Positions 2,935 to 62,470 of a stretch of DNA of 64,000 nt are shown here, piece by piece. The notes below the pieces were generated by a model. The model saw nothing but the letters and a program-made list of their open reading frames with translations, did not search any database and was not told the origin of the DNA. Origin of the DNA: Planctomycetota bacterium (GTDB lineage: Bacteria > Planctomycetota > PLA2 > JAEUHO01); NCBI GenBank assembly GCA_965222115.1, contig CBDCTJ010000007.1, positions 2,452,691 to 2,516,690 of the forward strand. Direction: 5' to 3'. Position 1 is the stretch's first letter; every line of letters begins with the position of its first letter. Made by a program: the position numbers and the translations under genes.

Positions 2935-3395
2935 GGTCAGAACAGTAACACGTGCTCATGTTGTGGGCATTGAATTCTGGACGATACAGTGTCGAGACAA
3001 TCCACACCTTACCTTTAATGTGAGCCGCGATTCTTTCCAACGCATTGAAGATCATTGTCCCATGCTCCATATTGCCTATCCATTTGGCGAACAACTACGT
3101 CATGGGGCAGGTTTGAAACGCTTGTTCTTGTTTGTCGAAATGCGTGAAATTTGCCCGTACACCGTATCTTTACGAGCGTTCGACTTGGATGGGTATTCAC
3201 ATCGTCAATGCGATGCACGAACGACTGATCGCGCATATGTGCGCGCGCTGGCATGGCGGTGTCGAGCGTTTCACCGTTCTCACTAAGCACGAGAGCGATG
3301 GAAAAGCGATTGTAGGGGACGCCGCTCATCGACAACGTCTGAGTAGCGGCACCGTTTTCTGACGCCGAAAGCGTCTTGTGAACCAAAAACCGATC

Positions 3396-3533
3396 TTACG
3401 TCGTTGATGGATCCCCATTCTCATCGGCATAGGCGTCGAGCCGCACGCCGCCTCCTCCACCGCCACAGGCGGTGAGTGAGAGCGCAGCGAGCAATACAGG
3501 TAGATAGCAAAGCAGGTTATTTGAGGGATACAT
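3396..3533 (-). CDS. possible small lipoprotein or lipoprotein gene fragment (45 aa)
   Basis: Hand-translated ORF not in the supplied track (<60 aa): MYPSNNLLCYLPVLLAALSLTACGGGGGGVRLDAYADENGDPSTT; signal peptide plus lipobox LTAC followed by a Gly run; lies in the divergent intergenic region. Could be a chance ORF. Confidence 0.2.
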   Translation of the reverse strand: MYPSNNLLCYLPVLLAALSLTACGGGGGGVRLDAYADENGDPSTT

Positions 3534-3726
3534 TGCAGGTCTCCTTGACCCCATCCCCCGGGGTCAGGAGCTACATAGGATTTGCCCGCTGCGGATGGCG
3601 CGAAACTCGGCGAAATTCTTCCGCGCGTCAGCCCTGTCCCCATTTTTAGCGGCTTCGAGTTGCTCCGACCCGCGAAATCCGAAATTTTCCGTACGATGCC
3701 GACCGAAACACGTCTGTACGGGTGTC

Positions 3727-7182: not shown

Positions 7183-8859
7183 TTGGCGATGGAGCCCGAA
7201 GACGTCCGCTACCTCGCTGCTTTTGACAGCTTCCGCTTACCGCAACACCTCACCGACGTATTGGTGATCGGCACGGGCGTGGCGGGCTACTCAGCGGCGC
7301 TTTGGGCCGCACGTGGCGGCGCGCGCGTCATGGTGTTGGCCAAAGGCGAGCCGGGCGAAAGCAATACCGCCTACGCGCAGGGAGGCATCGCGGCGGTGCT
7401 CGCCGATGCCAAGAGCCGCAGTGATTCTCCCGAGGCTCATGCCGCCGACACAATACGCGTAGGGCACGGCCTGTGCGACGCTACGGTTGTCGAACGCGTC
7501 GCGCGCGAAGCGGCGGATCGCGTCGCGCTGCTTCAGGAACTCGGTGCGGCGTTTGACCTCAATGAAAAGGGCGTGTTGGCACGCGGACTCGAAGGTGGAC
7601 ATAGTCGGCCACGTATTCTTCATGCGCGCGGTGATGCAACCGGCGCCGAGATTCGCGATGTGTTGGCCAATGCCGTGACGTCCCACAAGAATGTAACGCG
7701 CTGGGGCGGTGCATTTGTTGTCGATCTTTTGAGCGACGACGACGGGCGCTGTCGCGGTGCGCTTGTGTTGTCGCGCGGGCATTTGCGTTGCGTTTGGGCG
7801 AGTACGGTCGTTTTAGCAGCGGGTGGCTACGGCCAGATCTATCAAGAGACGAGTAATTATCCCGGTGCATGTGGCGATGGGGTTGCGGCCGCGTTCCGTG
7901 CTGGCTGTGCAGTGCGTGATATGGAGTTCATTCAGTTTCATCCCACCACGCTCTATCTCGCGGGTGTACCGCGTATGCTGATCACCGAAGCGGTTCGCGG
8001 TGAAGGTGCACACATCGTGGATGGTAATGGGGAACGATTCCTAAAAGACGTTCACGAGCAGGCCGAACTTGCCCCGCGCGATGTGCTTTCGCGATCCATT
8101 CTCACTCGCTTGGCGAATCCGGAACATGGCGGGGTGTTTCTCGATCTGCGCCATTTGGATACTGAGAAGATGACGAAGCGCTTTCCGGGTGTGGCACGTT
8201 CGTGTGCGGCGCATGGATTGGATATTGGCGAGCATCGCATTCCCATTCGACCTGCCGCGCACTACACGATTGGCGGTGTGATTGCCGACATTGAGGGGCG
8301 AACGGCAATTCCTGGCCTCCTGGCGTGTGGTGAAGTGTCGTCAACGGGATTGCATGGCGCCAATCGACTCGCTAGCAACTCACTCTTAGAGGGCCTCGTT
8401 GCAGGGCGTCATGCGGGGGAACACGCGGTTCGCGATACGCGCGGAAAGAACGTTCGACCCGTAAAGATTCGAAGCGATGTCGAGCGACCGCGCGAAGGGC
8501 GTATCGATGTGCGCGACCTGCGGATTTCGCTCAAGGCGCTCACATGGCGTGATGTTGGAATTGTTCGAAATGGCGCCGAATTGATGGGGGCAGAAGGCGC
8601 CATCACTGCGTGGGAACGATTCGCGCACCGGGTGGGGAGCGAGGAAGACACGCGTCGCCTGACGCTACTCAATATGCTCTGTGTGGCGCGCCTGGCGAGC
8701 AAAGCGGCCCACATGCGCGAAGAAAGTCGTGGCACACACTTCCGTCTGGATTACAAGAAGCGGGACGACAAGGCGTGGCTTGGACATATCGTTCACGTGC
8801 GCGGCGAAGGAACACGATTTGAACGAATGCAGTCAGCAGACGACGGAAGCCGTGCATGA
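7183..8859 (+). CDS. nadB: L-aspartate oxidase
   Basis: FAD-binding N-terminus DVLVIGTGVAGYSAALWAARGG; SHRPRILHARGDATGAEI, GDGVAAAFRAGCAVRDMEFIQFHPTTLY, LITEAVRGEGAHIVD...ELAPRDVLSRSI, PIRPAAHYTIGGV and GLHGANRLASNSLLEGLV match recalled E. coli NadB motifs closely. Confidence 0.9.
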   Translation: MAMEPEDVRYLAAFDSFRLPQHLTDVLVIGTGVAGYSAALWAARGGARVMVLAKGEPGESNTAYAQGGIAAVLADAKSRSDSPEAHAADTIRVGHGLCDATVVERVAREAADRVALLQELGAAFDLNEKGVLARGLEGGHSRPRILHARGDATGAEIRDVLANAVTSHKNVTRWGGAFVVDLLSDDDGRCRGALVLSRGHLRCVWASTVVLAAGGYGQIYQETSNYPGACGDGVAAAFRAGCAVRDMEFIQFHPTTLYLAGVPRMLITEAVRGEGAHIVDGNGERFLKDVHEQAELAPRDVLSRSILTRLANPEHGGVFLDLRHLDTEKMTKRFPGVARSCAAHGLDIGEHRIPIRPAAHYTIGGVIADIEGRTAIPGLLACGEVSSTGLHGANRLASNSLLEGLVAGRHAGEHAVRDTRGKNVRPVKIRSDVERPREGRIDVRDLRISLKALTWRDVGIVRNGAELMGAEGAITAWERFAHRVGSEEDTRRLTLLNMLCVARLASKAAHMREESRGTHFRLDYKKRDDKAWLGHIVHVRGEGTRFERMQSADDGSRA

Positions 8860-10184
8860 AAATTGATCGCGGACCCAAGGTTCGGCGCGGTGGGGGAGAT
8901 CGCGAGAAAGCGATCCTCGTGGGACTCAAGTTGCCAGGCGATCCTGTGTCGTATCAAAAGCCCCTTGATGAACTCGAACGACTGGCCGATACTGCCGGCG
9001 CCGACACCGTAGACAAAATTGTGCAGTCGCGTGACCGTCCCGATGCCAAGACCTATATTGGGAAGGGCAAAGCCGAGGAAATCGGTGAGTTGCTGGTCGC
9101 CACGGGCGCAGATCTCGTGATCGTCGATCACGACTTGAGTCCGTCGCAGGCACGCAACCTTGAGAAGGTCATCAAAGGACGCGTGATTGACCGCACCGAG
9201 TTGATTTTGGACATTTTCGTGCGTCGTGCGAGTAGTGCGATGGCCAAGGCGCAAGTTGAGTTGGCGCAGATGCAATACAGTTTGCCTCGCCTAAAGCGCT
9301 TGTGGACGCACCTCAATCGGGAGGTGGCAGGCGGACGCGTAGGGATTGGTGTTCGTGGGCCGGGTGAAAAGCAGATTGAGACTGACCGGCGCCTCGTGCG
9401 GAGGCGAATTCGAGACCTGCAACGTGGACTGAAGGAGATGCAAAAGCATCGCGTGCTCCAAACCAAAGCACGCGACAAGTTCTTTACGATCTGTTTGGTG
9501 GGTTACACCAACGCGGGTAAGAGCACCCTGTTGCGTGCATTGACCGGCGCCGACGTGTTCATTCAAGATCGGCTGTTTGCAACGCTCGATACCACCACGC
9601 GGGCCTGGGAAATTGCACCGGGCCGCAAGGTATTCTTGTCGGACACGATTGGTTTCATCCGCGATCTGCCCCACCATCTCGTGAGTAGTTTCCTGGCAAC
9701 GCTCGAAGAAGCGCGGCGCGCGGATCTCCTTTTGCACGTGGTGGATGTCGCCGATCCGGATGCACTGGAACACGTCGATGTCGTTCAAGAGGCGCTGTAT
9801 TCGATTGGTGCCAGTGCGGTGCCGCGCATTACGGTGCTCAACAAGATCGATCGTCAGCGTGATCCCGTAACGCTAAGGTTGCTCGAGGAGCAACGCGCGT
9901 CGTGCGTGCGCACCAGCGCACAAACGGGCCGCGGCATAGACGAGCTACGAGACGCGGTGTATGGCTACGTCACGCGACACCACGTCAACCTCACCCTTTC
10001 GGTCTCCGCAGGCCGGGGCAAGTTGCTCACGCAAATACGGGAGTGGGCCGAAGTTGACGCCATTCGCTATGACGGCGACGACGCCATCCTCGACGTCCGC
10101 ATCGACCGTCCCCATGCCCGCCGCCTCCAGGAGATGGGCGTCCGCGTCCTTGAAGGTGCGGAGCAAATCGCCCTCTCCGAGTAG
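8856..10184 (+). CDS. hflX: GTPase HflX
   Basis: HflX N-domain (ELERLADTAGADTV...) followed by G-domain with P-loop GYTNAGKSTLLRALTG and DTIGFIRDLPHHLV; start overlaps nadB stop (ATGA). Confidence 0.9.
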   Translation: MKIDRGPKVRRGGGDREKAILVGLKLPGDPVSYQKPLDELERLADTAGADTVDKIVQSRDRPDAKTYIGKGKAEEIGELLVATGADLVIVDHDLSPSQARNLEKVIKGRVIDRTELILDIFVRRASSAMAKAQVELAQMQYSLPRLKRLWTHLNREVAGGRVGIGVRGPGEKQIETDRRLVRRRIRDLQRGLKEMQKHRVLQTKARDKFFTICLVGYTNAGKSTLLRALTGADVFIQDRLFATLDTTTRAWEIAPGRKVFLSDTIGFIRDLPHHLVSSFLATLEEARRADLLLHVVDVADPDALEHVDVVQEALYSIGASAVPRITVLNKIDRQRDPVTLRLLEEQRASCVRTSAQTGRGIDELRDAVYGYVTRHHVNLTLSVSAGRGKLLTQIREWAEVDAIRYDGDDAILDVRIDRPHARRLQEMGVRVLEGAEQIALSE

Positions 10185-10198: not shown

Positions 10199-10269
10199 TG
10201 CGCCAAAAATACCTGGTATTTCTGGCGCACCGCGGAGCACGCGCCACAAAAGGCAGGCCTTTGTGGCGC
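10199..10269. repeat. two adjacent palindromes in the hflX / secDF convergent intergenic region (possible bidirectional terminator or REP-like element)
   Basis: TGCGCCAAAAATACC-T-GGTATTTCTGGCGCA at 10199..10229 (15-bp arms, 1 mismatch) and GCGCCACAAAAGGC-a-GCCTTTGTGGCGC at 10241..10269 (perfect arms); the first unit is the same family as three copies at 43160..43339. Confidence 0.7.
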
Positions 10270-10295: not shown

Positions 10296-13200
10296 TTAGG
10301 TGGCGGCGGGGGCGAGTTCGGAGTCGCCCTCGACCTTGTGGGTGAGTGCCCAGGGAACGAGCATAACGAGCCCGTAGACGAAGGCGATAGCACCAAACAC
10401 CAGCCACCATGCGAGCCACACAAGGAAGATCACCGGGCTGAGGATCAGGAGCAGCGGATTCTCCAGGCACTTGGCGAGCATGCCCTTGGGCGGCGCGAAG
10501 CCCTTGATCTTCTCCCACAGCCACGGCAAGTAGAGCAGCAGCGGCGACGAGATGGCGATCGTCGAATAGGTACCGATGATCGAACCCAGGATCAGGAGGA
10601 ACGCGAAGCCTTCCAGCACGTTTCGTTGCCCGATGTTGAACGCAAAGAGCGCCAAACACACGAGCAAGAACGTGGCCGACGTCTTGATGGTTCGCGCCAA
10701 CGTCTGATTGATCGACAGGTTGATCAATGGTGCGTCAATATCGGGTCGCTTGCCGCGGTTCTCACGAATACGGTCAAAGATGACCACCGTGTCATTGACC
10801 GAATACCCAACGAGCGTCAGGAACGCGGCCACCATTGCCAGGTTGATCTTGGCATCCACGATTCCGAGCGTATTGGCGATTGCCACCAAGCCGAGCGTAA
10901 TGGCGACGTCGTGGAAGAGACACAACACCGCCGCAAAGCCCATCGCCCGCGAACGGAATCGAATCGCGATGTACACAATGATGCCCAGCAACGACAACAC
11001 GAGTGCCAGCATGGCGTCGTTCTTCAGTCGCTGTGCGACGCTCGAACCAATCACGTCCGTCGAACGGAATGGTGCGCTCAAGCCGAAGTTTTCTTCACTG
11101 AGCCCAGCGTTTCCTACGTCCTTTGCAATCTCGGCGCGGAACTCAGGCCCGTCCAAGTACGCATCCAGTCGATTTTGAAGATCGTGCCAGTCGCCGTCGA
11201 GCGAGTCGCCGTTTGCGGCTGTGGTCTTAATCCAAATGTCAAAGGCGTTGAGTGCAGCAATCGGCTGTTTCGCCGGGCGTACCACCACCGCGCGTTTGAG
11301 TCCCTGGACTTCACTTGGAAGCTTGGGAACGTCTTTCCCATCCTCGAACTGCCAATGCGGAAACTTGGTCTGAAGTAGTGTTTCAAGCACCGTCGGTTTG
11401 ATGAGCTTGTCCGCATCACGAAATCCGATCTGCAAGTGCCATCCGCCATCGACCGCCGCGAGCGCAGGGTCGGCGCCGGCAGCGTCTTCATCGGCGGCCT
11501 TGGGGTGTTCGTATTTGGTGGGGGCCTCGAGAGACGAGTTCGGCATGAGGCGATCGTGGAGCACGCCCTCGATGTACTTCATGAACGCGCGCGACTGGAG
11601 CTCCTCGCTCAACTCGCTTTGCTTCTCATCGAACAGGCGCTGCACCTTAATTTCCGTGGAGCGCCCTTCGGTGCCCACGGCAAGAACTTGGGCACTTGGA
11701 AAGGGCCCAACATTCAGTGTGACGGGGCGCAGCTTGTCTTCGCCCTTCTCGTCTTTGTACTCCTCCTGAATCGTGACTTCGCGGGCCTCGGAGAGCGCCT
11801 GCTTTACATCGTCGACGGATGTTGTCTTGTGAAATGCGGCCTGCGCCTTGTAGCCACCCGTGAAGTCAACGTCATACAGCGTGTACTTATCGGTCCCGGC
11901 AAAGATAACCAACCCGGTAACCACAGCGGCTACGGAGATAGGCAGGAACAGTCGACGAAGCCCAATCCAGTTGGTGCGCGGTGGCACACCGGTGCCGAGC
12001 ATGCCGAGCTTCTTGAGCCAACCCTTGTGCAACATCCACTCAACGATGGTACGCGTTACGAAGATGGCCGTGAACATAGAGACCATCAGGCCGATGGCCA
12101 GCGTGATTGCGAATCCACGCACGGGACCCGAACCAAATTTGAACAGGAAGATGGCCGTAATGATGGACGTTACGTTGGCGTCGATGATGGCGCTCAGTGC
12201 GCGGTCATAGCCTTCGGACACCGCGCGGCGCAGGCTCCGGCCGCCGCGTAACTCCTCACGAATACGCTCGTTAATCAGAATATTCGCGTCCACCGCCATA
12301 CCCACGGTCAACACAATGCCGGCGATACCCGGCAGTGTGAGGACTGCCTGGAAGAACGCCAAAAAGCCCACCAGCAACACAAGGTTGAGCAGCAGCGCGA
12401 TGTTGGCCACCATGCCTGTGGCGCGGTAGTAGATGAACATGAACACAAGCACGAGCAGGAAAGCCACGATGATCGAAAGCAGGCCGCGATTTCGCGACTC
12501 ACCCGCAAGCGAGGCGCCGATTCGCGTCTGCGCTTCCAGCGTGGGCTGTACTTTCAGCGAACCGGTTTGAAGCACTGTAGCAAGCTGCTCGGCTTCCTCC
12601 TGTGTCGACCGGCCAAGCGTGATTTGCACGTTGTCTCGTAGCGTTTCCTGAATCGTGGGTGCGGAGAAGTACTCCTTGTTCAGGATGATGGCCATGGGGA
12701 GCTTCTTGTTCCGACCCGTCCACTCGGCAAACACATTTTGATATTCGTTCTTGACGTTGTAGAGCACGACCCAGCCGGGATTGCTCATATCGGCTGAAGG
12801 CGCCGCAACTGGATTGACCAGGATACGGCCATCAAAGAAATAGCGGTCGCCAGGCCCGCCGGTTTCTTCAAGTACGTGAAACTCGTTGACGTTTGATCCT
12901 GGTGCCCCTTTGGACTTGACGACTCGAAAGCGTTTGTCGGACGGCTTGTATTCGATGCCCTTGTCGCGCGCTGCCTGCCAGAGTTCGACTTCCTTCTTCT
13001 TGAATGCCTCGAATCTTCGTTCGGCGGCTTCGTCTGATTCCGTGGGCGAGAGTTTCGGCCAGACTCCTTTACGCTCGGGGATTTGATCTTCCCTATTTCC
13101 GGCTCTCGCGAGGTACGTGCTGTCCGGCAATACCTCGATTTGAAACCGCAGGTCACCGAGTTGCGTAACGAGGCCCGCAATGTAGTCGGCTCGTGACGCC

Positions 13201-13511
13201 GCGCCCGACGGCAGTGAAATCTCGAACTTGTTGTCACCCAGCGGCGTGATGTTGGTCTCCGCCAACCCGGATGCGTTGATACGTTGGTCGATGACCTTGA
13301 TCGTATCCGTGACGACCTTGACCGGATCGGTCGTAGGTTCAATATCTCCACGCGCAATCGCGCGTTCCAAATCGAGTGAAAATCGTAGGGTCGTTCCACC
13401 CTCCAAGTCTTGCCCGAGTTTGATTCCCGAGGCCAGGAAGGCCCAAATCAAGATGCCGGTGACCGCGAGGATGACCCAGAACCGGCCCTTTAGATCGGAT
13501 TGTTCAATCAT
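10296..13511 (-). CDS. secDF: protein translocase subunit SecDF (fused SecD-SecF)
   Basis: ~1070-aa multi-TM protein with large periplasmic loops and paired 6-TM bundles (FAITLAIGLMVSMFTAIFVTR; NTLGIVDAKINLAMVAAFLTLVGYSVNDTVVIFDRIRE); downstream of yajC. Start placed at ATG 13511 (MIEQSDLKGRF) with GGAG 7 nt upstream. Confidence 0.85.
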   Translation of the reverse strand: MIEQSDLKGRFWVILAVTGILIWAFLASGIKLGQDLEGGTTLRFSLDLERAIARGDIEPTTDPVKVVTDTIKVIDQRINASGLAETNITPLGDNKFEISLPSGAASRADYIAGLVTQLGDLRFQIEVLPDSTYLARAGNREDQIPERKGVWPKLSPTESDEAAERRFEAFKKKEVELWQAARDKGIEYKPSDKRFRVVKSKGAPGSNVNEFHVLEETGGPGDRYFFDGRILVNPVAAPSADMSNPGWVVLYNVKNEYQNVFAEWTGRNKKLPMAIILNKEYFSAPTIQETLRDNVQITLGRSTQEEAEQLATVLQTGSLKVQPTLEAQTRIGASLAGESRNRGLLSIIVAFLLVLVFMFIYYRATGMVANIALLLNLVLLVGFLAFFQAVLTLPGIAGIVLTVGMAVDANILINERIREELRGGRSLRRAVSEGYDRALSAIIDANVTSIITAIFLFKFGSGPVRGFAITLAIGLMVSMFTAIFVTRTIVEWMLHKGWLKKLGMLGTGVPPRTNWIGLRRLFLPISVAAVVTGLVIFAGTDKYTLYDVDFTGGYKAQAAFHKTTSVDDVKQALSEAREVTIQEEYKDEKGEDKLRPVTLNVGPFPSAQVLAVGTEGRSTEIKVQRLFDEKQSELSEELQSRAFMKYIEGVLHDRLMPNSSLEAPTKYEHPKAADEDAAGADPALAAVDGGWHLQIGFRDADKLIKPTVLETLLQTKFPHWQFEDGKDVPKLPSEVQGLKRAVVVRPAKQPIAALNAFDIWIKTTAANGDSLDGDWHDLQNRLDAYLDGPEFRAEIAKDVGNAGLSEENFGLSAPFRSTDVIGSSVAQRLKNDAMLALVLSLLGIIVYIAIRFRSRAMGFAAVLCLFHDVAITLGLVAIANTLGIVDAKINLAMVAAFLTLVGYSVNDTVVIFDRIRENRGKRPDIDAPLINLSINQTLARTIKTSATFLLVCLALFAFNIGQRNVLEGFAFLLILGSIIGTYSTIAISSPLLLYLPWLWEKIKGFAPPKGMLAKCLENPLLLILSPVIFLVWLAWWLVFGAIAFVYGLVMLVPWALTHKVEGDSELAPAAT

Positions 13512-13746
13512 GATGAAACTCCATCTGCCGCTTCCGTGCGTGCAGACCATGGACGGCGGGCCGAAGCCCGACTTCGAAAGAAAGCTCTCGTAGGTTCACT
13601 GAACGACGTTCAGATTGAGATCACGCTTACGAGAATGCGCCCAACGCACACACAGCATTCGTGCATGCGGTTCGAGTCTGCCTTGGCTAGCGCGACGTGC
13701 CGCGTCGAGGCAGTTGGGGACGGGCTAAGCCCCCAATGCATGTGGA

Positions 13747-14169
13747 TCAACAGTGCAAGACGATCGACGCGAGCCGTTCAAGGTCGGTTTGGCAGCGAGA
13801 GTCAAAGCTGTCGCGCGTGGTACGCGCCGCGAGACGTGAGCCATCCAGCGCGCTCAAAGCGGCAGGCCGTTGACCAAAGAAGAATGCGTACACGCTGCTG
13901 CCGGTGAGTTCGGCTCGTACAACGGAACACGTAATGAGGCCGTCGGTAGGTTTGTCGGTACCCAGTTTGGCACTGGCCATCGCCAGCGCCGCATTGACAT
14001 TCGTAATTGCCGAGGCTTCGCGCGCGCTGCTTTCACCATCATCGTTTGCTTGTGCCGGTGATAAGCCAAAGCACACGGGGCTCACGAGTGACAACATGAG
14101 GATGGAAACGAGTCCCATGCGACGCAACCATGTCTCGCGATTCGACATACGTGGTTCGGTAGTTCGCAT
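13747..14169 (-). CDS. hypothetical secreted protein
   Basis: ORF fills the gap between yajC and secDF on the same strand; signal-peptide-like MGLVSILMLSLVSPVCFGLSPAQA; no recognisable family; start uncertain. Confidence 0.35.
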   Translation of the reverse strand: MRTTEPRMSNRETWLRRMGLVSILMLSLVSPVCFGLSPAQANDDGESSAREASAITNVNAALAMASAKLGTDKPTDGLITCSVVRAELTGSSVYAFFFGQRPAALSALDGSRLAARTTRDSFDSRCQTDLERLASIVLHC

Positions 14170-14171
14170 CG

Positions 14172-14707: not shown

Positions 14708-15820
14708 ATGGTCAGGGATCCAGAATCGATGCGCCTGCTTGCCGCCCTCTCCGGAGGGGTTGACAGTGCTGTTGCCGCCGCGCGCGCCATTCAATCGGGC
14801 GCCGACGTTGTGGCTGTACACCTACGAACCGGCGTTGAGCAGGATGGCGCAGCGGCCGGCGGAGCCCGAAGTTGCTGCGGTGCGGACGATGCCCGCGACG
14901 CCCGGGCCATCGCCAGCACGTTGTCGATCCCGTTCTATGTCGTGGACGTTCGCCAATCGTTTGGTCGCGTCATCGATGCCTTTGAACGCGACTATGTGGC
15001 GGGTCGCACGCCGAGCCCGTGCGTGTTGTGCAACCAGTGGGTCAAATTCGGGCGCCTGGTTGAGATTGCCCATGAACTCGGCGCGAGCGCTGTCGTTACA
15101 GGTCACTATGCGCGTACCGAAACCACGACCGACGGACGCATCCGCTTGTTGCGTGGGCGTGATCCGCGTAAGGACCAGAGTTATATGCTCTGCCGACTGA
15201 ACCAAGATCAATTGCGGGCCGCACGGTTTCCGTTGGGTGACACAATCAAAGACGACGTTCGCGACGAAGCTCGTGAGCTTGGCCTTGGCGTTGCCGACAA
15301 GCCCGACAGTCAAGAGCTCTGTTTTCTTCCCGCGGGCGGCGCCCGTGAGTACTTGGCAAAGAAGCGCGCAAACGACAATCGTCCCGGTGTGTTTGTTGAC
15401 GAGCACGGGAACGAAGTCGCGTCACACGATGGCGCGCTGGGTTACACCATGGGTCAACGTAAGGGACTGCCCGCGGTTGGAACGCCACGCTACGTAAAGG
15501 ATGTGTCACCCAGCACCGGCGTCATTCGCATGGCGCCGCGGGAACACCTCATGCACAGTGAAGTCGCCGGTAGCGACGTCAACTGGATTGACTGCGATGC
15601 GCCGAAGAGCGGGTCGATCTTGCATGGGCTTCACGCACGGATTCGCCATGCCTCGCCACCGCAAGCGGGGACGCTTCACATCCAAGGCAACACTGTCACG
15701 TTTCGATTTGACGACCCGGTGTTTGCACCAACGCCCGGACAGGTGCTCGTCGTCTATCGCGAAGACGCCGTAGTGTGTGGCGCCACGATTGAGCCGTCCG
15801 CGGTTGATACGCAGGGCTAG
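14708..15820 (+). CDS. mnmA: tRNA-specific 2-thiouridylase MnmA
   Basis: PP-loop SGGVDSAV; catalytic-Cys regions CVLCNQWVKFGRLVE and SQELCFLP; overall MnmA length and layout. True start may be ATG 14729 (MRLLAALSGG). Confidence 0.9.
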   Translation: MVRDPESMRLLAALSGGVDSAVAAARAIQSGADVVAVHLRTGVEQDGAAAGGARSCCGADDARDARAIASTLSIPFYVVDVRQSFGRVIDAFERDYVAGRTPSPCVLCNQWVKFGRLVEIAHELGASAVVTGHYARTETTTDGRIRLLRGRDPRKDQSYMLCRLNQDQLRAARFPLGDTIKDDVRDEARELGLGVADKPDSQELCFLPAGGAREYLAKKRANDNRPGVFVDEHGNEVASHDGALGYTMGQRKGLPAVGTPRYVKDVSPSTGVIRMAPREHLMHSEVAGSDVNWIDCDAPKSGSILHGLHARIRHASPPQAGTLHIQGNTVTFRFDDPVFAPTPGQVLVVYREDAVVCGATIEPSAVDTQG

Positions 15821-16000
15821 GCACGCGCGTGGTTGTGACGAACACCATGACAACGTCGGCTCTCCATCGGGCGTATAGCTGTGATGCAGGGGAACGCGCC
15901 ACCATGAATGAGGCGCCTCGTGTCACTACCCCGTCTCGTTGGACGCCCGACTGTCACGCGCGTGACGAATCAATTGCCATACGCGCACGAACGAAAGAAC

Positions 16001-16023
16001 CCTCCGGCGCACCGCGCCGGAGG
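16001..16023 (-). terminator. candidate intrinsic terminator downstream of the HU gene
   Basis: Perfect hairpin CCTCCGGCGC-acc-GCGCCGGAGG; on the minus strand it is followed by GTTCTTTCGTT. Lies ~85 nt past the HU stop. Confidence 0.4.
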
Positions 16024-16106
16024 GCTCGGGAAACTCAGTCCGAAACAACTCGGTCAGAAACAACATGGTCTACCCAGTTGCGGAAAGGCTATGCGTTGTG
16101 GAAAGG

Positions 16107-16382
16107 CTACGGCTTGAGCTTTTCCTTGAGGGCTTTCCCCGCCCGGAACGTAACGCCCACGGACGCAGGGATTTGGATGCGCGCCCCGGTTTGGGGATTC
16201 GTACCCATTCGCGCTTTACGCTCGGAGCGGCGGAACGTTCCGAAGCCAAGAATGGCAACATCCCCTCCGCTCACGAGGCCGTGGGTGACGGACTCGACAA
16301 ATGCGTTGAGCGCGCGCTCGGCTTCGGCCTTGCTTGAGCCCAAGCGACCTGCCATCGCCTCTATTACTTCGGCTTTGTTCAT
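16107..16382 (-). CDS. hup: HU family nucleoid-associated DNA-binding protein
   Basis: 91-aa product MNKAEVIEAMAGRLGSSKAEAERALNAFVESV...ILGFGTFRRSERKARMGTNPQTGARIQIPASVGVTFRAGKALKE with the HU beta-arm signature; only the 3' 276 nt of the longer track ORF is real. Confidence 0.9.
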   Translation of the reverse strand: MNKAEVIEAMAGRLGSSKAEAERALNAFVESVTHGLVSGGDVAILGFGTFRRSERKARMGTNPQTGARIQIPASVGVTFRAGKALKEKLKP

Positions 16383-16490
16383 GGATCCTCCAGCGGCGCG
16401 ACCCCGGTGGGGCTCGCGTGACAACCCGAATCCTAGCCAACACTTGGGCCGCGGAGCACCGGAATTCGAGACTGCCCTGAGGTCGCAGGC

Positions 16491-18803
16491 GTGAAGCAAT
16501 GGACGCTGCGGGCCGGCATCCTCCTCTGTGTGGGCCTCGCCCTGGCCGATTTGCAACCAATTCCCATCGGTGACCCACCGCCTCCCAGGCTGATTCTTGA
16601 CGTTTCCGCAAGCATGGGTCCCGCCGCTCAAGAGCATCCGGATGACATAAAATACGGTTATCCAGTAACTTATGTCGCATCCAGGGCGGCGGATATGCGC
16701 CTAGGGCAAGCCCCGCCCCAAGTAGGAACGGGCGCGACGCGGCTCGGAGAGGCCATTCGAAGGGCGCCCGAGGGTACAACCTTGATTTTGGTGAGCGACG
16801 GATTGGATACCGATGGCGATGCCATCATGGCGTCCCGTGACCACCACCAAAAAGGCGGTCGCGTCTTCACACATCCGCCCAAATCCAGCGTTGCAGACGT
16901 GGGTTTGACCTCGCTGCGGGTGATTTCCGAGCGGCCTCGGGCCACATTCGAAGCCGAGCTTCATGCGACGACTTCCGGCGAAGCCCGACTGACACTTCAG
17001 CGTGAAGACCGAATTGCATTGGAGCGGACCCTCTCATTCGTGGCGGGCGAGACGAGGACCGTTGAGTTGGTGGATACCGTGCCCGTTGCCCGGGATGCGC
17101 CGCGAGCGCGCTACCGCGTTCGTCTAACGGTTGGCGCTGAGACGCCCAATGACATCGCCGAAAACGACGAGCTTAACGTTGTGCTTCAAGCCGGGACGCG
17201 ACGCGCCCTGTGGTGGGGCGATCCCAATCTCGATCGCGATGCGTTGGCCCAGCGATCGGATGTCGCCATTCAGGTGGTCGACGTGTTGCGAGCCGCCGAA
17301 GTACGCGCCGCCGATGTTCTCGTAGTCTCGAACATCCCCTACTACGAGATTCGAGGACACACCGACGTCATCGAGTCATTTGTGGCGCGCGGCGGAAGCC
17401 TGCTCATGCTTGGAGGGCCCGACGCTTATGCAGGAGGTGGTTGGGGAGGGACGCACCTCGAGGAGCGTCTGTCGGCGCTGCAATCCAAGCGATCCGATCG
17501 AACCGCATTGGCACTCGTTCTTGCGCTTGATCACAGCGGGAGTATGGCGGGTGGCGCACTCCAGCGATTACGCGAATCGGTGCGGACCGCGGTTGCAGGG
17601 CTCGCACCCGATGAACGGCTTGCGGTCTTGCCTTTCTCTTCCGGTCGCGATGCCACCCTGTTGACGCCGGGGTTCGTTTCGCGCGACGACACGGCGGCGG
17701 TTGAAACGTTGCTGCATGCGCTAGATGGATTGGAGGCGCGAGGGAGCACGCAGTTACTTCGTGCCATACAAGCGTCGGCGGCTCACCTGCGAGATGTGGA
17801 TGCACGCGAGCGACGGGTGGTACTGCTCAGCGATGGCGATCCCGACCACGAGTTGAGTGAATCGGAACTCGAAGCCACACGGAAGATCTTGGTTGAAGAG
17901 CAAATCGGGTTCGGCGCACTTGTCGTGGGCATGAAACGCGTGGCCGATCGCCTTGTGACGTTGTCGTCCAATCCCAAGGATGTGGTGTTGCTGCGCCAGC
18001 CCGGCGCCTTTCCCGATTCGCTCCGACGACAGTTGCAACGTCGTCGTCGCAGTAAGGAACGTGTCAATCCTCCCATCACGCTAGTGATCGATGACGCTAC
18101 TCGTTGTCCCATCGATGCGAAGCTTACGATTCACTTTGCACATCGTCTGAGCGTCCATCCACAAGCCATTCGCATTGCACGGTTGACCGCCGGCCGCGGT
18201 CGAGAGTTGCTTCCCTTTGCCGCAGAGCGGCGGGTGGGGGCGGGCACCGTCGTGTCGGTGGCCTGGGGCCCTGAAGGTGAGCGCTCCATAGACCACGCAC
18301 GCGCCACGGACGCGTTGCTGCCGCTGGTCGTTCGCCTTGCCGCGCGCTCGGATCGCGGTCTCGCGGCCGAGATCAATGGAAACGAACTCATGGTTGTGGC
18401 GCCATTTGCAGCGAGCCTCGGTGTCTTGTCGCTGCTAGATGGCGAAGAACGGCCTGTGGGCGAGCTAATTGAACGTGAACCTGGCATGTTTGTTGGACCC
18501 ATCCCGCTCGCCGACGGACTGTCGATTCGCCATGGGGACGCCCGGCACACACTGCGTCTGCCGGCGCGGCCCGCGCCCGAATTTCGTCGCATTGGCACCG
18601 ACGAGATATCGCTCATGCGCATTGCGGATGCCGGTGGCGGGCGCCTACTGCAACGTGGGCAGTCGCCGCCACGCGCCGAGACGTTTCGCGGTTCCTCGTG
18701 GGCGCCGTGGTTTCTTCTCGCGGCGCTATTGCTCTTCGTGTGGGAACGTCACGAGTCAAACACCGCCAAACGTATGGCGCTTGGTGATGCGCTTGCCGGA
18801 TGA
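16491..18803 (+). CDS. von Willebrand factor A (VWA) domain protein, two VWA/MIDAS modules, signal peptide and C-terminal TM
   Basis: N-terminal signal sequence LRAGILLCVGLALA; MIDAS-like DxSxS motifs LILDVSASMG and LALDHSGSMAG; C-terminal hydrophobic WAPWFLLAALLLFVW; GTG start. Confidence 0.7.
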   Translation: MKQWTLRAGILLCVGLALADLQPIPIGDPPPPRLILDVSASMGPAAQEHPDDIKYGYPVTYVASRAADMRLGQAPPQVGTGATRLGEAIRRAPEGTTLILVSDGLDTDGDAIMASRDHHQKGGRVFTHPPKSSVADVGLTSLRVISERPRATFEAELHATTSGEARLTLQREDRIALERTLSFVAGETRTVELVDTVPVARDAPRARYRVRLTVGAETPNDIAENDELNVVLQAGTRRALWWGDPNLDRDALAQRSDVAIQVVDVLRAAEVRAADVLVVSNIPYYEIRGHTDVIESFVARGGSLLMLGGPDAYAGGGWGGTHLEERLSALQSKRSDRTALALVLALDHSGSMAGGALQRLRESVRTAVAGLAPDERLAVLPFSSGRDATLLTPGFVSRDDTAAVETLLHALDGLEARGSTQLLRAIQASAAHLRDVDARERRVVLLSDGDPDHELSESELEATRKILVEEQIGFGALVVGMKRVADRLVTLSSNPKDVVLLRQPGAFPDSLRRQLQRRRRSKERVNPPITLVIDDATRCPIDAKLTIHFAHRLSVHPQAIRIARLTAGRGRELLPFAAERRVGAGTVVSVAWGPEGERSIDHARATDALLPLVVRLAARSDRGLAAEINGNELMVVAPFAASLGVLSLLDGEERPVGELIEREPGMFVGPIPLADGLSIRHGDARHTLRLPARPAPEFRRIGTDEISLMRIADAGGGRLLQRGQSPPRAETFRGSSWAPWFLLAALLLFVWERHESNTAKRMALGDALAG

Positions 18804-22127: not shown

Positions 22128-22450
22128 CGCCTGCGCTTCGTTTCTTAGCGTTCTTAGTGTGAGCTATTTCTTCAAGCACCGTTCCGCCACCTCCAAACAC
22201 CCGCATTCACCGACTGCCATCCCAAACGCTTGCGCCCCTCTGCGCCTCTGCGGTCTCTGCGCGCGGCTAAAACCGACTAAACAAGAAACTCCTCGTTCTC
22301 CGGTTGCGCTTGGTGATCTTGGTGTCCTTCGTGAGAACCTTCTTCTTCAAACGGCGCCACACAACCAATCACGTACGCTCCCGCCAAACAACGCACCCCA
22401 ACGCTTGCGCTCCTCTGTTTGGCGCACAAAGAAACCCGGCCTCCCCAACG
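22128..22450. repeat. right copy of the imperfect inverted repeat flanking the 20801..22096 gene
   Basis: See left copy; contains a 9-bp internal duplication (GGTCTCTGC) and a second partial unit CCCCAACGCTTGCGCTCCTCTG at ~22396. Confidence 0.8.
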
Positions 22451-22508
22451 GGAAGACCGGGTGCGGTTCGATTCACACTGCGCGAGCGCAGCGACGAAAC
22501 TGTGTCAA

Positions 22509-40788: not shown

Positions 40789-42966
40789 ATGCGGCGCCAA
40801 AAGACCCTCACCGTCATGTTCACCGATATCTCGGGGTTTACGAAGCACACCGAGACCGTTACGCGCGATGAATTGATGGCGCGGCTCGACGAGCACAACG
40901 CCCTACTCATGCCCATTGTGCGCCACTTTGAAGGTCGTATTGTGAAGTCCATTGGCGATGCGCTCATGATCGTCTTCGAAAGTCCAACGAACGCCGTGCA
41001 ATGTGGGATGTTGATGCAACATCGATTGGCGCGCCACAACCGTGGCAGGGTTGAATTCGAACAGATACACATCAAGGTTTCGCTCAACGCTGGCGAAGTC
41101 ACAGTAACCGAGAACGATGTCTTTGGCGATTGCGTCAATGTGGCGGCAAAGATTGAGAAGGCCACACGGCCCGACGAAATCTACTTCACGGAATCGGTCT
41201 TCCTCGCCATGAACAAAGCGGAGGTGCCCAACGTCTTCGTAAAGAACTTTCGACCTAAGGGTGAACAGAGCCATGAGATCAAGCTCTACAAGGTCATCCA
41301 AGATGTAACCAACGAACAGTACGCACGTCTTATCCGCGATACGGACATTAAGGACGACGATCCATCCGACGCGCTTGAGCTATCGGATCTTGCAGGCAGC
41401 GATCTTCCTAGCGGCCACGACTCCTTGGCGGAACTCATTGCCGACGAACGGGCACGTTCGCGAAAGAACCTTTTGCTGGCAACGGCCTTAGGCGCCTTGT
41501 TGCTCGGCGGGCTCGTCGTAGGGGGACTGGCGCTGTTTAGTGGCAGCAAAGGCCCCACCGCTGCCGATCGTACGACCGACGCCGTTCGTGCCTACTTGGC
41601 CAAAGGCAATGTGGAGGGCGCCCGATCCGCGATCGCCAATTTTGGAGCCGACGGCGGGAGTCAAGAACGCATTGCGCAGTTGCAGCGCGAGATTCACGCC
41701 TATCAGGGTGGTGAATCGGTAAAGCGCATCAAGGCGCTACTTGCCGACGACAACGTGGACGATGCCCGTTCACTTGTCGGTAGCAATCGCGAGTTCATTC
41801 CGACCGCGTTGCTGACTCACATCGATGCGCTAGCGGCGGCGGAACAGGCGCTACGCGACGGCGACGCGGAGGCGGCGCGTAAGGGCTTGCAGGGTGCGGA
41901 CCCGACGTTCACTCCGAGGAACGCCTACGCGGCGTGCAAGAAGCGAATCGAGGCCATCGATACCGCGTGGCACGTGCATGAACACTCGGAATCGGTCGAT
42001 GACGCAGAGCGAGCAATCGAGGTCCTGTCGGGGGCATTCGGAGACGACACCCATCATCCTGTGGCCACGCGTATTTTGGGCGACATGATCATTCGTTCTG
42101 TTGGCATGACAGCTCGGACGAGTGGGCGCAAGGCGATCCGCGAGCACTTTGACGCGCTCATGAAACGCTTTCCAGGTATCAAAGATCGCACGCGTATTCG
42201 CCGCGAAGTGCAGCTCCACGCGCTGTGGTTTTACACGAGTGACTACGAGGCTCGACGTCGCTGGCGCGGTCGATTTGACAGCCAGAGTCAACGGGAGATT
42301 GCTACGCTTCGCGAGCTGGGCAAAGGCGATGCCGACTTTTTGTTTCGACTTGGCGTCACGCGCCACCGGATTTCGCGAAAGAACGGACTCGGCATATCGG
42401 ATGGCGCGCAAGACATTGAGAGCGCCATGAAGTTGGATCCGCGCCTCATTGAAACGCGTGCCGACGAGTTGTACCCGATTGCGATCGATTGGCTACGTTG
42501 GGTGTCGTCTCCCGATTCACTGGCCCACAAGCTCGTTACGGGCCCCTTCAAAGAGCGTGCGCGCGAGCATCTTTTTGCCCGTGCCTTTGCTCCCTACGGT
42601 GGCAAGCGCGACGACGCACCGCGGCCTGAAGAACGCGCCAATGCTGTTGCGGCGTTGGTTGCCATGAATGCACCGATCGAAACCGAACAAGCCGTGGAGT
42701 TTGTGACCAACAACTGGAAGACCGTGCTCACGGGTCGCAATCCGATCATTTCCATCGATGTCTTTGCTGCTCTCTTTGCCCGCAAGGACATGGCCTACGA
42801 GTACTTCGAACGCTTGGCAGGCGACATCAAACGGATCCAAACCGAACTGGGCGCCAAGCGAGGCAAGTTCAGCGCCTACAAGCACGCCCGCGATCGCATC
42901 CTCGCTCTCCGCCGCACCCTCATCGACGCCCACCCCGCTCACGCCAAACGCTTCGCCGCAAACTAG
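40789..42966 (+). CDS. class III adenylate/guanylate cyclase: N-terminal catalytic domain, single TM, large C-terminal helical domain
   Basis: Cyclase motifs LTVMFTDISGFT, VKSIGDALMIVF, GDCVNVAAKIE; hydrophobic helix LLLATALGALLLGGLVVGGLALF at ~aa 225-250; ~470 aa of helical/TPR-like sequence after it. Confidence 0.75.
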   Translation: MRRQKTLTVMFTDISGFTKHTETVTRDELMARLDEHNALLMPIVRHFEGRIVKSIGDALMIVFESPTNAVQCGMLMQHRLARHNRGRVEFEQIHIKVSLNAGEVTVTENDVFGDCVNVAAKIEKATRPDEIYFTESVFLAMNKAEVPNVFVKNFRPKGEQSHEIKLYKVIQDVTNEQYARLIRDTDIKDDDPSDALELSDLAGSDLPSGHDSLAELIADERARSRKNLLLATALGALLLGGLVVGGLALFSGSKGPTAADRTTDAVRAYLAKGNVEGARSAIANFGADGGSQERIAQLQREIHAYQGGESVKRIKALLADDNVDDARSLVGSNREFIPTALLTHIDALAAAEQALRDGDAEAARKGLQGADPTFTPRNAYAACKKRIEAIDTAWHVHEHSESVDDAERAIEVLSGAFGDDTHHPVATRILGDMIIRSVGMTARTSGRKAIREHFDALMKRFPGIKDRTRIRREVQLHALWFYTSDYEARRRWRGRFDSQSQREIATLRELGKGDADFLFRLGVTRHRISRKNGLGISDGAQDIESAMKLDPRLIETRADELYPIAIDWLRWVSSPDSLAHKLVTGPFKERAREHLFARAFAPYGGKRDDAPRPEERANAVAALVAMNAPIETEQAVEFVTNNWKTVLTGRNPIISIDVFAALFARKDMAYEYFERLAGDIKRIQTELGAKRGKFSAYKHARDRILALRRTLIDAHPAHAKRFAAN

Positions 42967-43159
42967 GCTCTGTCTGAAAGCTCCTCTACTGCGCAATCCG
43001 ATCCTCTCGCTGCGAGTCGCGTCCCTTCGAAATTGCCGTCCTCGACGTGAACAGACCACGCCTGCGGGCCAATTTCTTGGTCCATCGACTCTCGCATCGG
43101 TCTCCCGCGTTTATTGAAGAGACACGGGCTCGTCACGAGGCTTTTCAGGCAGGGCCTAA

Positions 43160-43339
43160 TGCGCCACAAATACCAGGTATAGTTGGCGCACGGGCCCGTA
43201 GACGCCCATTCGTTGGGCTCGCCCCGGCGCGCGATACTCGTCGTGCGCCACAGAAACCAGGTATTTTTGGCGCATGCCGATAGGCGAGCGCGCTACGCGA
43301 CATGGCGGTGCGCCAGAAAAACCAGGTATTTTTGGCGCA
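43160..43339. repeat. three tandem copies of a ~31-bp palindromic repeat in the cyclase / lpdA convergent intergenic region
   Basis: TGCGCCACAAATACCAGGTATAGTTGGCGCA (43160..43190), TGCGCCACAGAAACCAGGTATTTTTGGCGCA (43244..43274), TGCGCCAGAAAAACCAGGTATTTTTGGCGCA (43309..43339); same family as 10199..10229. Confidence 0.8.
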
Positions 43340-43343
43340 CGGA

Positions 43344-44753
43344 TTAGGGGTTGAGAATGTGGATGGCTTTGCCGTGAACGGCTTCGGCGGCTTCCATGAG
43401 GGATTCGGGCCAGGTGGGGTGGGCGTGGACCGTGAGGGCAATGTCTTCGCTAGTGGCGCCCATTTCGATGGCGAGCGCGGCTTCGGCGATGAGGTCGGAA
43501 GCTTGGTAGCCAACGCCGGACACGCCCAGTACTTCATCGGTTTCGGGATCCGCAATGATCTTTACGAATCCGTCGGTGGCACTCACGGAGAGCGCGCGAC
43601 CCAAGGCTGTGAACGGGAACTTGCCCACCTTTACGTTACGCCCCGCTTCTTTGGCCTCGTGTTCCTGTAGTCCTACGGTTGCGACTTCGGGATGGGTGAA
43701 CGTTGCGGCGGGCATGGCACGCACGTCGTAGACGCTACTCGTGTTCCCGGCCGCGTGCTCGGCTGCCACAATGCCTTCCTTGCTTGCCTTGTGGGCCAGC
43801 CACGGCAATCCGGCGACGTCACCAATCGCGTAGATGTGTGGCACATTGGTCTGTCGGCTTTCGTTTACGGCGAAGTGACCCGTGTCGTCGATTTGTAAGC
43901 CGGCCGCATCGCGACCCACGCGATCGGAATTGGGTTTGAAGCCAATCGCACACAGGACGACTTCGGAGGGTATCGACAGTTCTTTCCCCTTCTTATCCTT
44001 TGCTTTCACGATGAGGTTTTTGCCGGTGCCTTCGATGGCTGTGGCACCGGTTTCCTTATGAATCTTCCCCTTGAGTTTCTTGATCGACTTCTCGACCACC
44101 TTTACGAGGTCGGGATCCGTACCGGGAAGGAGCGACTTGGTCAGCTCAATCACGGTCAACTTGGAACCCAAGCGCTGGAAGACAGTCCCTAGCTCTAGGC
44201 CAATCACGCCGCCGCCAATTACCGTGAACGAATCCGGCACCCAATCGATGTCGAGCGCCTCGCGATAGGTCATGACATTGCCGCCGATGGGCAGAAACGG
44301 CAGGGTGGCCGCACGTGCTCCGGTAGCCACAATGCACTTGTCAAATGATACCGCCTGCGTCTTGCCGTCGCTGTCCTTCACAGCGAGAGCCTTCGGCGAC
44401 GTGAACTCGGCATGTCCGTGAATCGTGGTCACGCCGTTCTTACTAAGCAAGAAACCAACACCTGTTGTGAGGCGATTGACGATGCCCGACTTCCACTCCT
44501 GGAGCTTCTTCCCGTCTACCTCGACATCACCAACGACAACGCCCATGGCATCGGCCTTGCGAATCTTGTCCACCAAGCCACTTGCGTAGATCAAGCTCTT
44601 TGAGGGAATGCAACCCACATTGAGACACACGCCACCAATCTTGTCCTCTTCGATGACGGCAGTCTTGAGTCCGAGTTGACCTGCACGAATGGCGGCCACA
44701 TAGCCGCCCGGCCCAGATCCAATCACGACAAGATCAAAGTGTTGATCAGCCAT
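43344..44753 (-). CDS. lpdA: dihydrolipoyl dehydrogenase (E3)
   Basis: FAD motif DLVVIGSGPGGYVAA; redox disulfide GGVCLNVGCIPSK; C-terminal HAHPTWPE interface motif. Confidence 0.9.
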   Translation of the reverse strand: MADQHFDLVVIGSGPGGYVAAIRAGQLGLKTAVIEEDKIGGVCLNVGCIPSKSLIYASGLVDKIRKADAMGVVVGDVEVDGKKLQEWKSGIVNRLTTGVGFLLSKNGVTTIHGHAEFTSPKALAVKDSDGKTQAVSFDKCIVATGARAATLPFLPIGGNVMTYREALDIDWVPDSFTVIGGGVIGLELGTVFQRLGSKLTVIELTKSLLPGTDPDLVKVVEKSIKKLKGKIHKETGATAIEGTGKNLIVKAKDKKGKELSIPSEVVLCAIGFKPNSDRVGRDAAGLQIDDTGHFAVNESRQTNVPHIYAIGDVAGLPWLAHKASKEGIVAAEHAAGNTSSVYDVRAMPAATFTHPEVATVGLQEHEAKEAGRNVKVGKFPFTALGRALSVSATDGFVKIIADPETDEVLGVSGVGYQASDLIAEAALAIEMGATSEDIALTVHAHPTWPESLMEAAEAVHGKAIHILNP

Positions 44754-44807
44754 TGAGAACTCCTCACGCGACGCGCGTAGCGCCTCGTGCATGAAAGAAC
44801 AGATTCG

Positions 44808-47380: not shown

Positions 47381-48358
47381 CTATTCCCAGCGCGCCGTGT
47401 ACTCAATGGCATTGAGTACACGTGCCTTGTCGGGCTTGTACACATGCTCAAGCGCATAGGGGAAGGGCGTGTCGAATCCTGCAACACGAGCGATGGGCGC
47501 TTCGAGATACTCGATGGCTTTCTCGGCAACTGTTGCAGACACTTCGGAAGCGAAACCACACGTGCGTGGTGCTTCCTGAACGGCCACACAACGCCCGGTC
47601 TTCTTTACGCTTTCAACTACTGACGCAGCGTCCCACGGAAGCAAGCTGCGAAGATCAATGATCTCAGCGTCGATGCCCTTTTCTGCGGCCTCCGCCGCCG
47701 CAGCCTCAACGATGGGCACCATAGCGCCCCACGTGACAACCGTGATGTCGTTGCCGCTGCGCACCGTGCGTGCCTTGTCGAGCTCAACGGTGAAGTAGCC
47801 CTCGTCCACGTCTTGTTTGCCATGGCGATAAAGTGCTTTGGGCTCTAAGAACAGCACCGGGTCATCGCAAAAGATGGATGAGAGCAACATGCCCTTCGCG
47901 TCAGACGGTGTGCTTGGCATGACCACGCGCAAGCCGGGTGTGTGGGCAAAGTAGGCCTCACTTGACTGCGAGTGATAGTGACCGCCGCGAATGCCTCCAC
48001 CGGACGGCGAACGAATCACCATGGGGCAGGTGAAGTGACCGCCGGAGCGATAGCGCATTTTCGCGGCCTCGGAAACGATTTGGTCAAAGCCGGGATAGAT
48101 AAAATCTAAGAATTGAATCTCTGGCACCGGTCGCAACCCGTAGAGCGCCATGCCAATGGCTGTGCCCATGATGCCGCACTCTGAAAGCGGCGTATCCATC
48201 ACGCGCAGGTCGCCGTACTTGTTGTGAAGTCCGTCGGTGGCGCCAAATACGCCACCTTTCTTGCCGATATCTTCACCCAACATCACAACGTCGCCATCGC
48301 GATCCATCGCGAGATGCAGGGCGTCGTTGATGGCTTGCAGCATGGTCATCTGAGGCAT
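47381..48358 (-). CDS. 2-oxoacid dehydrogenase E1 component beta subunit
   Basis: Transketolase-like pyrimidine-binding and C-terminal domains (VVMLGEDIGKKGGVFGAT, ITVVTWGAMV); ~325 aa. Confidence 0.85.
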   Translation of the reverse strand: MPQMTMLQAINDALHLAMDRDGDVVMLGEDIGKKGGVFGATDGLHNKYGDLRVMDTPLSECGIMGTAIGMALYGLRPVPEIQFLDFIYPGFDQIVSEAAKMRYRSGGHFTCPMVIRSPSGGGIRGGHYHSQSSEAYFAHTPGLRVVMPSTPSDAKGMLLSSIFCDDPVLFLEPKALYRHGKQDVDEGYFTVELDKARTVRSGNDITVVTWGAMVPIVEAAAAEAAEKGIDAEIIDLRSLLPWDAASVVESVKKTGRCVAVQEAPRTCGFASEVSATVAEKAIEYLEAPIARVAGFDTPFPYALEHVYKPDKARVLNAIEYTARWE

Positions 48359-61807: not shown

Positions 61808-61821
61808 GTATCCGTTCAACG

Positions 61822-62451: not shown

Positions 62452-62470
62452 GAGGAGTTCCAGAAATTCG

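Follow-up and report, generated by a model that had tools for sequence, protein, structure and literature searches.

What kind of element is the palindrome that lies between the converging 3' ends of hflX and secDF in this Planctomycetota bacterium, and what could it do for the two genes that end there? The first-pass annotation had placed it once at this junction, beside a second perfect palindrome, and three times in tandem between a cyclase gene and lpdA, and had proposed a REP/BIME-like element or a dimeric protein-binding site rather than a simple intrinsic terminator. We analysed the whole 64-kb stretch of DNA (the window), related loci and public sequence collections.

Five palindromes form one repeat family

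A 31-nt palindrome, (T)GCGCCA-N17-TGGCGC(A), occurs five times in the 64-kb window (starts at 10199, 10240, 43160, 43244, and 43309), and the copies form one real, discrete repeat family. The 31-mer TGCGCCAAAAATACCNGGTATTTTTGGCGCA matched, with up to three mismatches, at 10199–10229, 43160–43190, 43244–43274, and 43309–43339, while the same search of dinucleotide-preserving shuffles (n = 100) gave 0.00 matches. The palindrome is thus present and located as first described, in four near-identical copies and one variant. With the looser frame GCGCCA-N17-TGGCGC we obtained five matches against 0.01 expected, the fifth being 10241–10269. Of nine occurrences of the half-motif GCGCCANAAA in the window, eight fall within the palindromes, and of five occurrences of ACCWGGT in the 64 kb, four belong to the element; isolated arms or half-sites are not enriched in the window. 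A covariance model built from the five copies (R1) and run on the whole 64 kb with filters off scored the copies at 47–52 bits and the next-best window match at 14 bits, and revealed neither degenerate extra copies in the 64 kb nor copies inside genes of the window. The five copies are:

10199..10229, minus strand (in family-consensus orientation): copy 1, 52.2 bits, 14 nt past the hflX stop codon
10240..10270, plus strand: copy 2, CGCGCCACAAAAGGCAGGCCTTTGTGGCGCG, a diverged subfamily member, 47.6 bits
43160..43190, plus strand: copy 3, 47.8 bits, 193 nt past the cyclase stop codon
43244..43274, plus strand: copy 4, 49.8 bits, −11.1 kcal/mol
43309..43339, plus strand: copy 5, 51.5 bits, −14.8 kcal/mol, z −4.35, ending 4 nt short of the lpdA stop codon (complement of 43344–43346)

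Searches of public collections returned only look-alikes. An 18-base pattern, GCGCCA-N5-ACC-N-GGT-N5-TGGCGC, had at least 103 single chance matches in GTDB genomes, all in G+C-rich genomes, and the two best look-alikes among the matches listed lie inside open reading frames. A strict 22-base pattern had no match in JGI metagenomes, where a looser outer-arm pattern gave 71 matches, all unrelated; a strict 20-base pattern had no match in IMG/VR, where a loose pattern matched only once per contig. The repeat is so far seen only in this window. The JGI search also brought up an unrelated hairpin repeat with the approximate consensus AGAAACCGGCGCCATAAATCGACTCCATTTTTGGCGCCGGTTTCT, which occurs in both orientations on at least 17 contigs of about 41–48% G+C from related metagenome samples (Ga0056114/123/129/131/132, Ga0209681, Ga0209788; contigs L106, L107, L110, L138–L141, L144, L149, L154, L158, L165, L170–L172, and L176).

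Sequence anatomy and descent of the copies

The family consensus is TGCGCCA-S-AAA-W-ACC-A-GGTATTTT-TGGCGCA, with a unit of 31 nt, lengthened to as much as 35 nt in the closest pair of copies. Written in one orientation, the sequence of the four core copies is TGCGCCA-S-A-R-A-W-ACC-A-GGTAT-(TTT or AGT)-TGGCGCA; the outer 7-mers, the central ACCAGGTAT, and the ACCWGGT tip are invariant among them. The four also deviate from perfect symmetry in the same ways: at position 8/24 T faces G or C, and the central base is A. This common asymmetry points to one ancestral sequence and not to terminators that arose independently, and, judged by alignment, shows the copies to be descendants of a single ancestral sequence. 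Similarity between copies ends 0–4 nt outside the 31-mer, and all flanks and spacers are unrelated; in the same alignment the repeat unit is the palindrome by itself.

Copy 1 is 30/31 identical to copy 5 when reverse-complemented and 27/31 in forward orientation, and the similarity of this pair stretches to 35 nt at 97% (BLAST). Its orientation is opposite to that of copies 3–5, and GC skew is positive over almost all of the window, which argues against a replication-strand rule. With the four core copies brought into one orientation, their aligned flanks were searched for a conserved GTAG or CGTC tag, and none was found: CGTC borders copy 4 alone, and GTAG lies near copy 3 alone, at a distance of 8 nt.

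The neighbour of copy 1, which had been reported as a second, perfect palindrome, exists as a palindrome but is not perfect, with arms of 14 and 13 nt and hence a one-base bulge. Nor is it a separate thing: its outer arms (GCGCCAnAAA/TTTnTGGCGC) are identical to those of the other copies at equal spacing, and it is for this reason better described as a diverged fifth member, copy 2. It lies 10 nt from copy 1 and 25 nt from the secDF stop codon, retains the outer arms and 17-nt frame of the family, differs in the apical part, and is 21–23/31 identical to the other copies. Its apparently inverted orientation relative to copy 1 rests on 22 versus 21 identities.

At the cyclase/lpdA locus three copies do run in the same direction, as had been claimed, but they do not constitute a tandem array, being separated by unrelated spacers of 53 and 34 nt; with the 10 nt between copies 1 and 2, spacing between neighbours is irregular throughout. 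Tandem Repeats Finder reported no array at this locus, and this null result together with the unrelated spacers and flanks excludes a tandem array or segmental duplication. A scenario of the DNA-uptake-sequence kind was ruled out, as single arms are not enriched, and no skew was found that would indicate avoidance of, or selection for, CCWGG restriction sites.

Gene context in the window

The genes flanking the two loci are:

8856..10184, plus strand: hflX (GTPase), left gene of junction 1 (Pfam GTP-bdg_N, GTP-bdg_M, MMR_HSR1)
10296..13550, minus strand: fused secDF, right gene of junction 1 (Pfam SecD_SecF_C, SecDF_P1_head)
40789..42966, plus strand: adenylate/guanylate cyclase-domain protein gene, left gene of junction 2 (Pfam Guanylate_cyc)
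43344..44792, minus strand: lpdA (dihydrolipoyl dehydrogenase), right gene of junction 2 (Pfam Pyr_redox_2, Pyr_redox_dim)

Their Pfam-confirmed identities and strands bear out that both loci are convergent 3' junctions, and within the window the copies are, as first proposed, confined to convergent gene ends (5/5 in two such spacers). About eight convergent junctions were counted in the window on a crude map of open reading frames corrected by Pfam and inspection, and two of them carry the element. Window HflX is 100% identical to database protein P0001. The gene lpdA is the final gene of a 2-oxoacid dehydrogenase operon on the minus strand, with an E1 component gene upstream at 44808–46010. 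Its true start probably lies 13 codons inside the open reading frame 43344–44792, at about 44753; a 100% identical database LpdA (P0122) has 469 aa, compared with 482 aa for the longest open reading frame in the window.

RAYT genes are usually single-copy per genome. Pfam detected no transposase, Y1_Tnp/RAYT, integrase, or cas domains among about 35 window proteins, and the proteins scanned are housekeeping or unannotated.

Several further features of the window were recorded. The 193 nt between the cyclase stop codon and copy 3 (42967–43159) hold no convincing open reading frame and have no similarity to any sequence compared. A unique palindrome in the convergent mnmA/HU spacer (15997–16027; GAACCCTCCGGCGC-ACC-GCGCCGGAGGGCTC, 14-nt arms with one mismatch) is followed on the minus strand by TTTCGTT and looks like an ordinary bidirectional terminator. 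At this site mnmA occupies 14708–15820 (plus strand) and a HU-type gene about 16107–16382 (minus strand), the latter concealed in a longer open reading frame; the 221-aa plus-strand open reading frame 15829–16494 is probably spurious. A perfect palindrome with 13-nt arms at 47396–47422 (CGTGTACTCAATG-G-CATTGAGTACACG), A/T-rich for this genome and unrelated to the 31-nt family, overlaps the final codons of the gene for E1-beta (transketolase-like) in the 2-oxoacid dehydrogenase operon (47381–48358, minus strand). A classical-looking terminator at 22433–22472 on the minus strand (ACCCGGTCTTCCCGTTGGGGAGGCCGGGTT followed by TCTTTGT, −24.7 kcal/mol) stands in a 664-bp gap between plus-strand open reading frames and suggests an unannotated minus-strand gene or small RNA there. 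The crude map has other long gaps of 620–685 bp (61808–62470, 59273–59957, 2935–3594, and 13551–14171); the position of the last is occupied by a gene of about 110 aa in relatives, and the others contain stable hairpins, e.g., at 3447–3486, 3534–3573, and 59498–59537.

Predicted hairpins

Folded as RNA, each copy is predicted to form a stem of up to 14 bp closed by a C-W-G triloop. The 1-nt centre noted earlier is accurate as the geometric centre of the palindrome; the loop of the predicted hairpin has 3 nt. The core copies fold at −11 to −19 kcal/mol and copy 2 at −21.8 kcal/mol, with z-scores down to −6.8. The lowest z-score belongs to the minus strand of copy 1, which forms the full 14-bp stem at −19.1 kcal/mol, and copy 3, with three uncompensated mid-stem mismatches, folds at −12.0 kcal/mol. 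Pairing holds in 88.6% of stem cells over the five copies. Pairs changed on both sides number three, all in copy 2, and the mid-stem changes in copies 3–5 are uncompensated, which suggests either weak selection for pairing or that the copies are young. Global folds of the three-copy cluster gave alternative long-range pairings between arms and carry no information on function.

U-tracts are absent on both strands at both loci, and a terminator scan reported no sites; the sequences 3' of the stems are CCGCGG, TGAGAG, CGGGCC, TGCCGA, and CGGATT. Given the lack of a U-tract, the hairpins are not canonical intrinsic terminators. A promoter scan found no promoter-like sites at either locus, and Rfam returned no match at gathering thresholds, nor at E<=1.

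The same junctions in related Planctomycetota

Homologues of HflX and LpdA carry Planctomycetota names, the closest being 75% (HflX) and 87% (LpdA) identical. Five relatives with HflX 67–75% identical keep the gene order in which nadB-hflX converges on secDF-x-yajC and mnmA on HU; the G+C content of these five contigs is 66–68%, compared with 58.7% in the window. The hflX/secDF spacer measures 29–47 bp and is free of the element in the four relatives with intact gene calls, compared with 111 bp in the window. These 111 bp consist of the 72-bp doublet of copies 1 and 2 plus 39 bp, which is the size expected of an insertion into a short ancestral spacer. From spacer length we infer that the element inserted at hflX/secDF in this lineage, the relatives being too distant for base-level alignment. 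The fifth relative (L264, 10001–14606) was left out of the measurement, since its hflX is called at 534 aa, its secDF is split, and small open reading frames overlap; this disruption looks like indel errors of a long-read assembly.

Model R1 had no match in 134 kb from seven related contigs (103 kb of the five hflX loci and 31 kb around lpdA in two). In the two relatives with LpdA 85–87% identical, a different gene lies downstream of lpdA and the element is absent. In one relative (L268) an arginine-biosynthesis cluster and lpdA are about 5 kb apart with other genes between them, an arrangement that places the cyclase/lpdA junction in a segment which is variable and has been rearranged.

At hflX/secDF, three of the four relatives possess unique hairpins that are strong (−35 to −45 kcal/mol, z −2.5 to −5.2) and unrelated to one another, which suggests that a hairpin is kept there by position and not by sequence. 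This argues that the junction needs a 3'-end hairpin, which in the window the repeat would supply; the mnmA/HU junction of the window likewise has a unique hairpin of its own. The initial contrast with a simple intrinsic terminator therefore holds as regards the missing U-tract and was drawn too sharply in view of these hairpins at the same junction. The hairpins are located at 11294–11325 (L104), 11306–11342 (L265), and about 11335–11362 (L266); those of L104 and L265 extend across the hflX stop codon.

Comparison with known repeat systems

REPs are elements of Proteobacteria, and families with a GTAG tag have also been described in planctomycetes, namely Rhodopirellula baltica, Planctomyces brasiliensis, and P. 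limnophilus (Di Nocera et al. 2013, PMC3733652). REPs lie mainly between unidirectional and convergent open reading frames, a head-to-tail arrangement is rare among tagged ones, GTAG-family stems measure 6–13 bp, and G-T oppositions in the stems suggest transcription (PMC3733652). The window repeat resembles these REPs in being an imperfect, extragenic, and lineage-specific palindrome of 20–40 bp, downstream of open reading frames at convergent junctions. Copies likewise stand alone, form a close and apparently inverted pair, or gather in a small cluster; complementary changes in the stem set subfamilies apart, and the stem contains G-T oppositions. It is unlike them in that it has no GTAG/CGTC tag, a 14-bp stem at the long end of the 6–13 bp range, and head-to-tail clustered copies, and in that a RAYT gene was not seen in the window.

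Untagged REP-like families are known from Mycobacterium tuberculosis, Deinococcus radiodurans, Bordetella, Brucella, and Cyanobacteria (PMC3733652). With these the window repeat shares the form of a stem-loop palindrome that has neither a terminal tag nor a known dedicated transposase. It has no sequence relationship to them and comes from another phylum, and it was defined from 64 kb whereas those families were defined genome-wide.

The REP/BIME elements of Escherichia coli, which act as attenuator-stabilisers in 3'UTRs and as bidirectional terminators (bioRxiv 10.64898/2026.03.23.713779), are similar in their position between convergent genes, their serial hairpins, and the absence of a canonical U-tract. 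Occupancy of convergent junctions is also comparable, at roughly one quarter to one third: REPs are found in 207/704 convergent spacers of E. coli (bioRxiv 10.64898/2026.03.23.713779), and the window repeat in 2 of about 8. REP325 of E. coli acts as a partly Rho-dependent attenuator and as a stabiliser of upstream mRNA (bioRxiv 10.64898/2026.03.23.713779). The window repeat differs from these elements in having neither alternating orientation nor defined linker motifs, and its function here is a putative one. With intrinsic terminators, finally, the repeat has in common a G+C-closed hairpin soon after stop codons, and it departs from them in having no U-tract, in carrying A and T runs within the stem, and in being repeated in sequence between loci.

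A probable untagged REP-like repeat and its alternatives

Taken together, these observations are best read as a lineage-specific untagged REP-like repeat that may have spread into 3' intergenic DNA, where its hairpins would limit read-through or degradation; we give this reading a probability of roughly 0.55. The repeat is a short stem-loop palindrome (31 nt, where REPs span about 20–40 bp), it is extragenic and downstream of open reading frames in all five copies, located in two convergent 3' spacers. High copy number, with tens to hundreds of copies dispersed per genome, is the hallmark of REPs; the 64 kb show five copies at two loci 33 kb apart. The REP part of the original proposal is supported by an extragenic, conserved palindrome family of common descent that is absent from the relatives' shorter spacer; the unpaired GTAG/CGTC that tagged REPs carry at one end is missing. 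A pairing of the REPIN/BIME kind could be represented by copies 1 and 2, 10 nt apart and apparently inverted (22 versus 21 identities), but the alternating architecture of BIMEs was not seen at the three-copy locus, where copies 3–5 stand head-to-tail.

A selfish or neutral palindromic repeat without host function is an unlikely but serious alternative. It holds that convergent 3' ends are the only places where an insertion of 31 nt harms neither promoter nor gene. The uncompensated mid-stem substitutions of copies 3–5, whose stabilities have decayed to between −11 and −12 kcal/mol, speak for it, as do the relatives without the element and the piling up of three copies at one site, which is expected where insertion is tolerated. 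Two loci are too few to tell tolerance from function, and both the invariance of the outer arms and ACCWGGT tip in four copies and the unrelated strong hairpins that relatives retain at hflX/secDF, where a hairpin consequently seems selected, count against it.

Duplex-DNA sites for a putative dimeric protein (nucleoid-associated, topology-related, or a regulator), with TGCGCCA/TGGCGCA half-sites around an ACCWGGT centre, are a distinctly doubtful explanation. E. coli REPs bind gyrase and IHF, and the blocky conservation of the family, with outer 7-mers and ACCAGGTAT fixed in four copies while the A/T-rich mid-stem varies uncompensated, would suit such sites, as would the concentration of ACCWGGT in the element (4/5 in 64 kb). 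Both loci, however, lie between stop codons and have no promoter-like sites, so that the palindrome is at neither locus at or near a promoter, where the operator of a dimeric transcription factor would be expected. The orthologous loci of relatives lack the sites, the spacing between copies is irregular (10, 53, and 34 nt), isolated half-sites are not enriched, copy 2 changes the centre and keeps the outer arms and pairing, and the shared asymmetry indicates copying and not convergence onto a binding consensus.

That the copies are ordinary gene-specific bidirectional terminators that merely resemble each other is very improbable. Stable hairpins do stand at convergent ends, 4–25 nt from three stop codons, and relatives have hairpins at the same junction, but 27–30/31 identity over loci 33 kb apart, including shared non-palindromic positions, has a chance expectation of 0; moreover, there is no U-tract on either strand, the terminator scan was null, and the other hairpins of the window are all unique in sequence. 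We attach next to no credence to a degenerate mini-CRISPR array, integron attC cluster, or MITE remnants, which the three direct 31-nt repeats with short spacers at 43160–43339 might recall, as the repeats are not identical (27–29/31), in place of the identical direct repeats, uniform spacers, and nearby cas genes or leader of a CRISPR array the spacers are unequal (53 and 34 nt) and no cas, integrase, or transposase domains were found in the neighbouring genes, two more copies, one inverted and one a variant, are located 33 kb away, Rfam gives no match (including CRISPR-DR) even at E<=1, and, with similarity stopping 0–4 nt from the 31-mer and no common flanking direct repeats, there is no larger unit with the terminal inverted repeats and target-site duplications of a MITE (about 50–500 bp).

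Possible role and significance

As an untagged REP-like repeat, the element would spread by insertion or duplication into gene-end spacers, for which a RAYT-type or other transposase acting on single-strand hairpins would be the obvious candidate enzyme, and copies would persist at gene ends, where insertion may be harmless or useful. Once transcribed, the palindromes would form part of the 3' end of each convergent mRNA, and their hairpins could act as barriers to 3'-to-5' exonucleases and reduce read-through towards the gene opposite, a role that has been shown for REPs between convergent genes in E. coli. Any termination would presumably be leaky, Rho-assisted or of the roadblock type, given the lack of a U-tract. 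A role as exonuclease barrier and leaky read-through block appears most likely by analogy with E. coli and in view of the hairpins that relatives keep at the same position. Liang, Rudd and Deutscher reportedly found in 2015 that REP hairpins no more than about 15 nt away from a stop codon affect translation termination in E. coli; copies 1 and 5 lie within this distance (14 and 4 nt).

It is also conceivable, though rather improbable, that the repeat represents a Planctomycetota-specific untagged class that accumulates head-to-tail, propagates without RAYT, and has replaced ancestral unique hairpins, i.e., a mobile 'plug-in' bidirectional 3'-end module.

The repeat opens no new kind of biology. 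On the practical side, repeats of this kind break short-read assemblies and indicate operon ends in genomes where terminator predictors based on U-tracts fail. If confirmed genome-wide, the repeat would extend the untagged REP-like families to a little-studied lineage of Planctomycetota, and a single convergent junction that holds unique hairpins in relatives and a repeated palindrome in the window would offer a clean natural comparison. The hflX/secDF comparison bears on the possible recruitment of REP-type repeats as interchangeable 3'-end hairpins.
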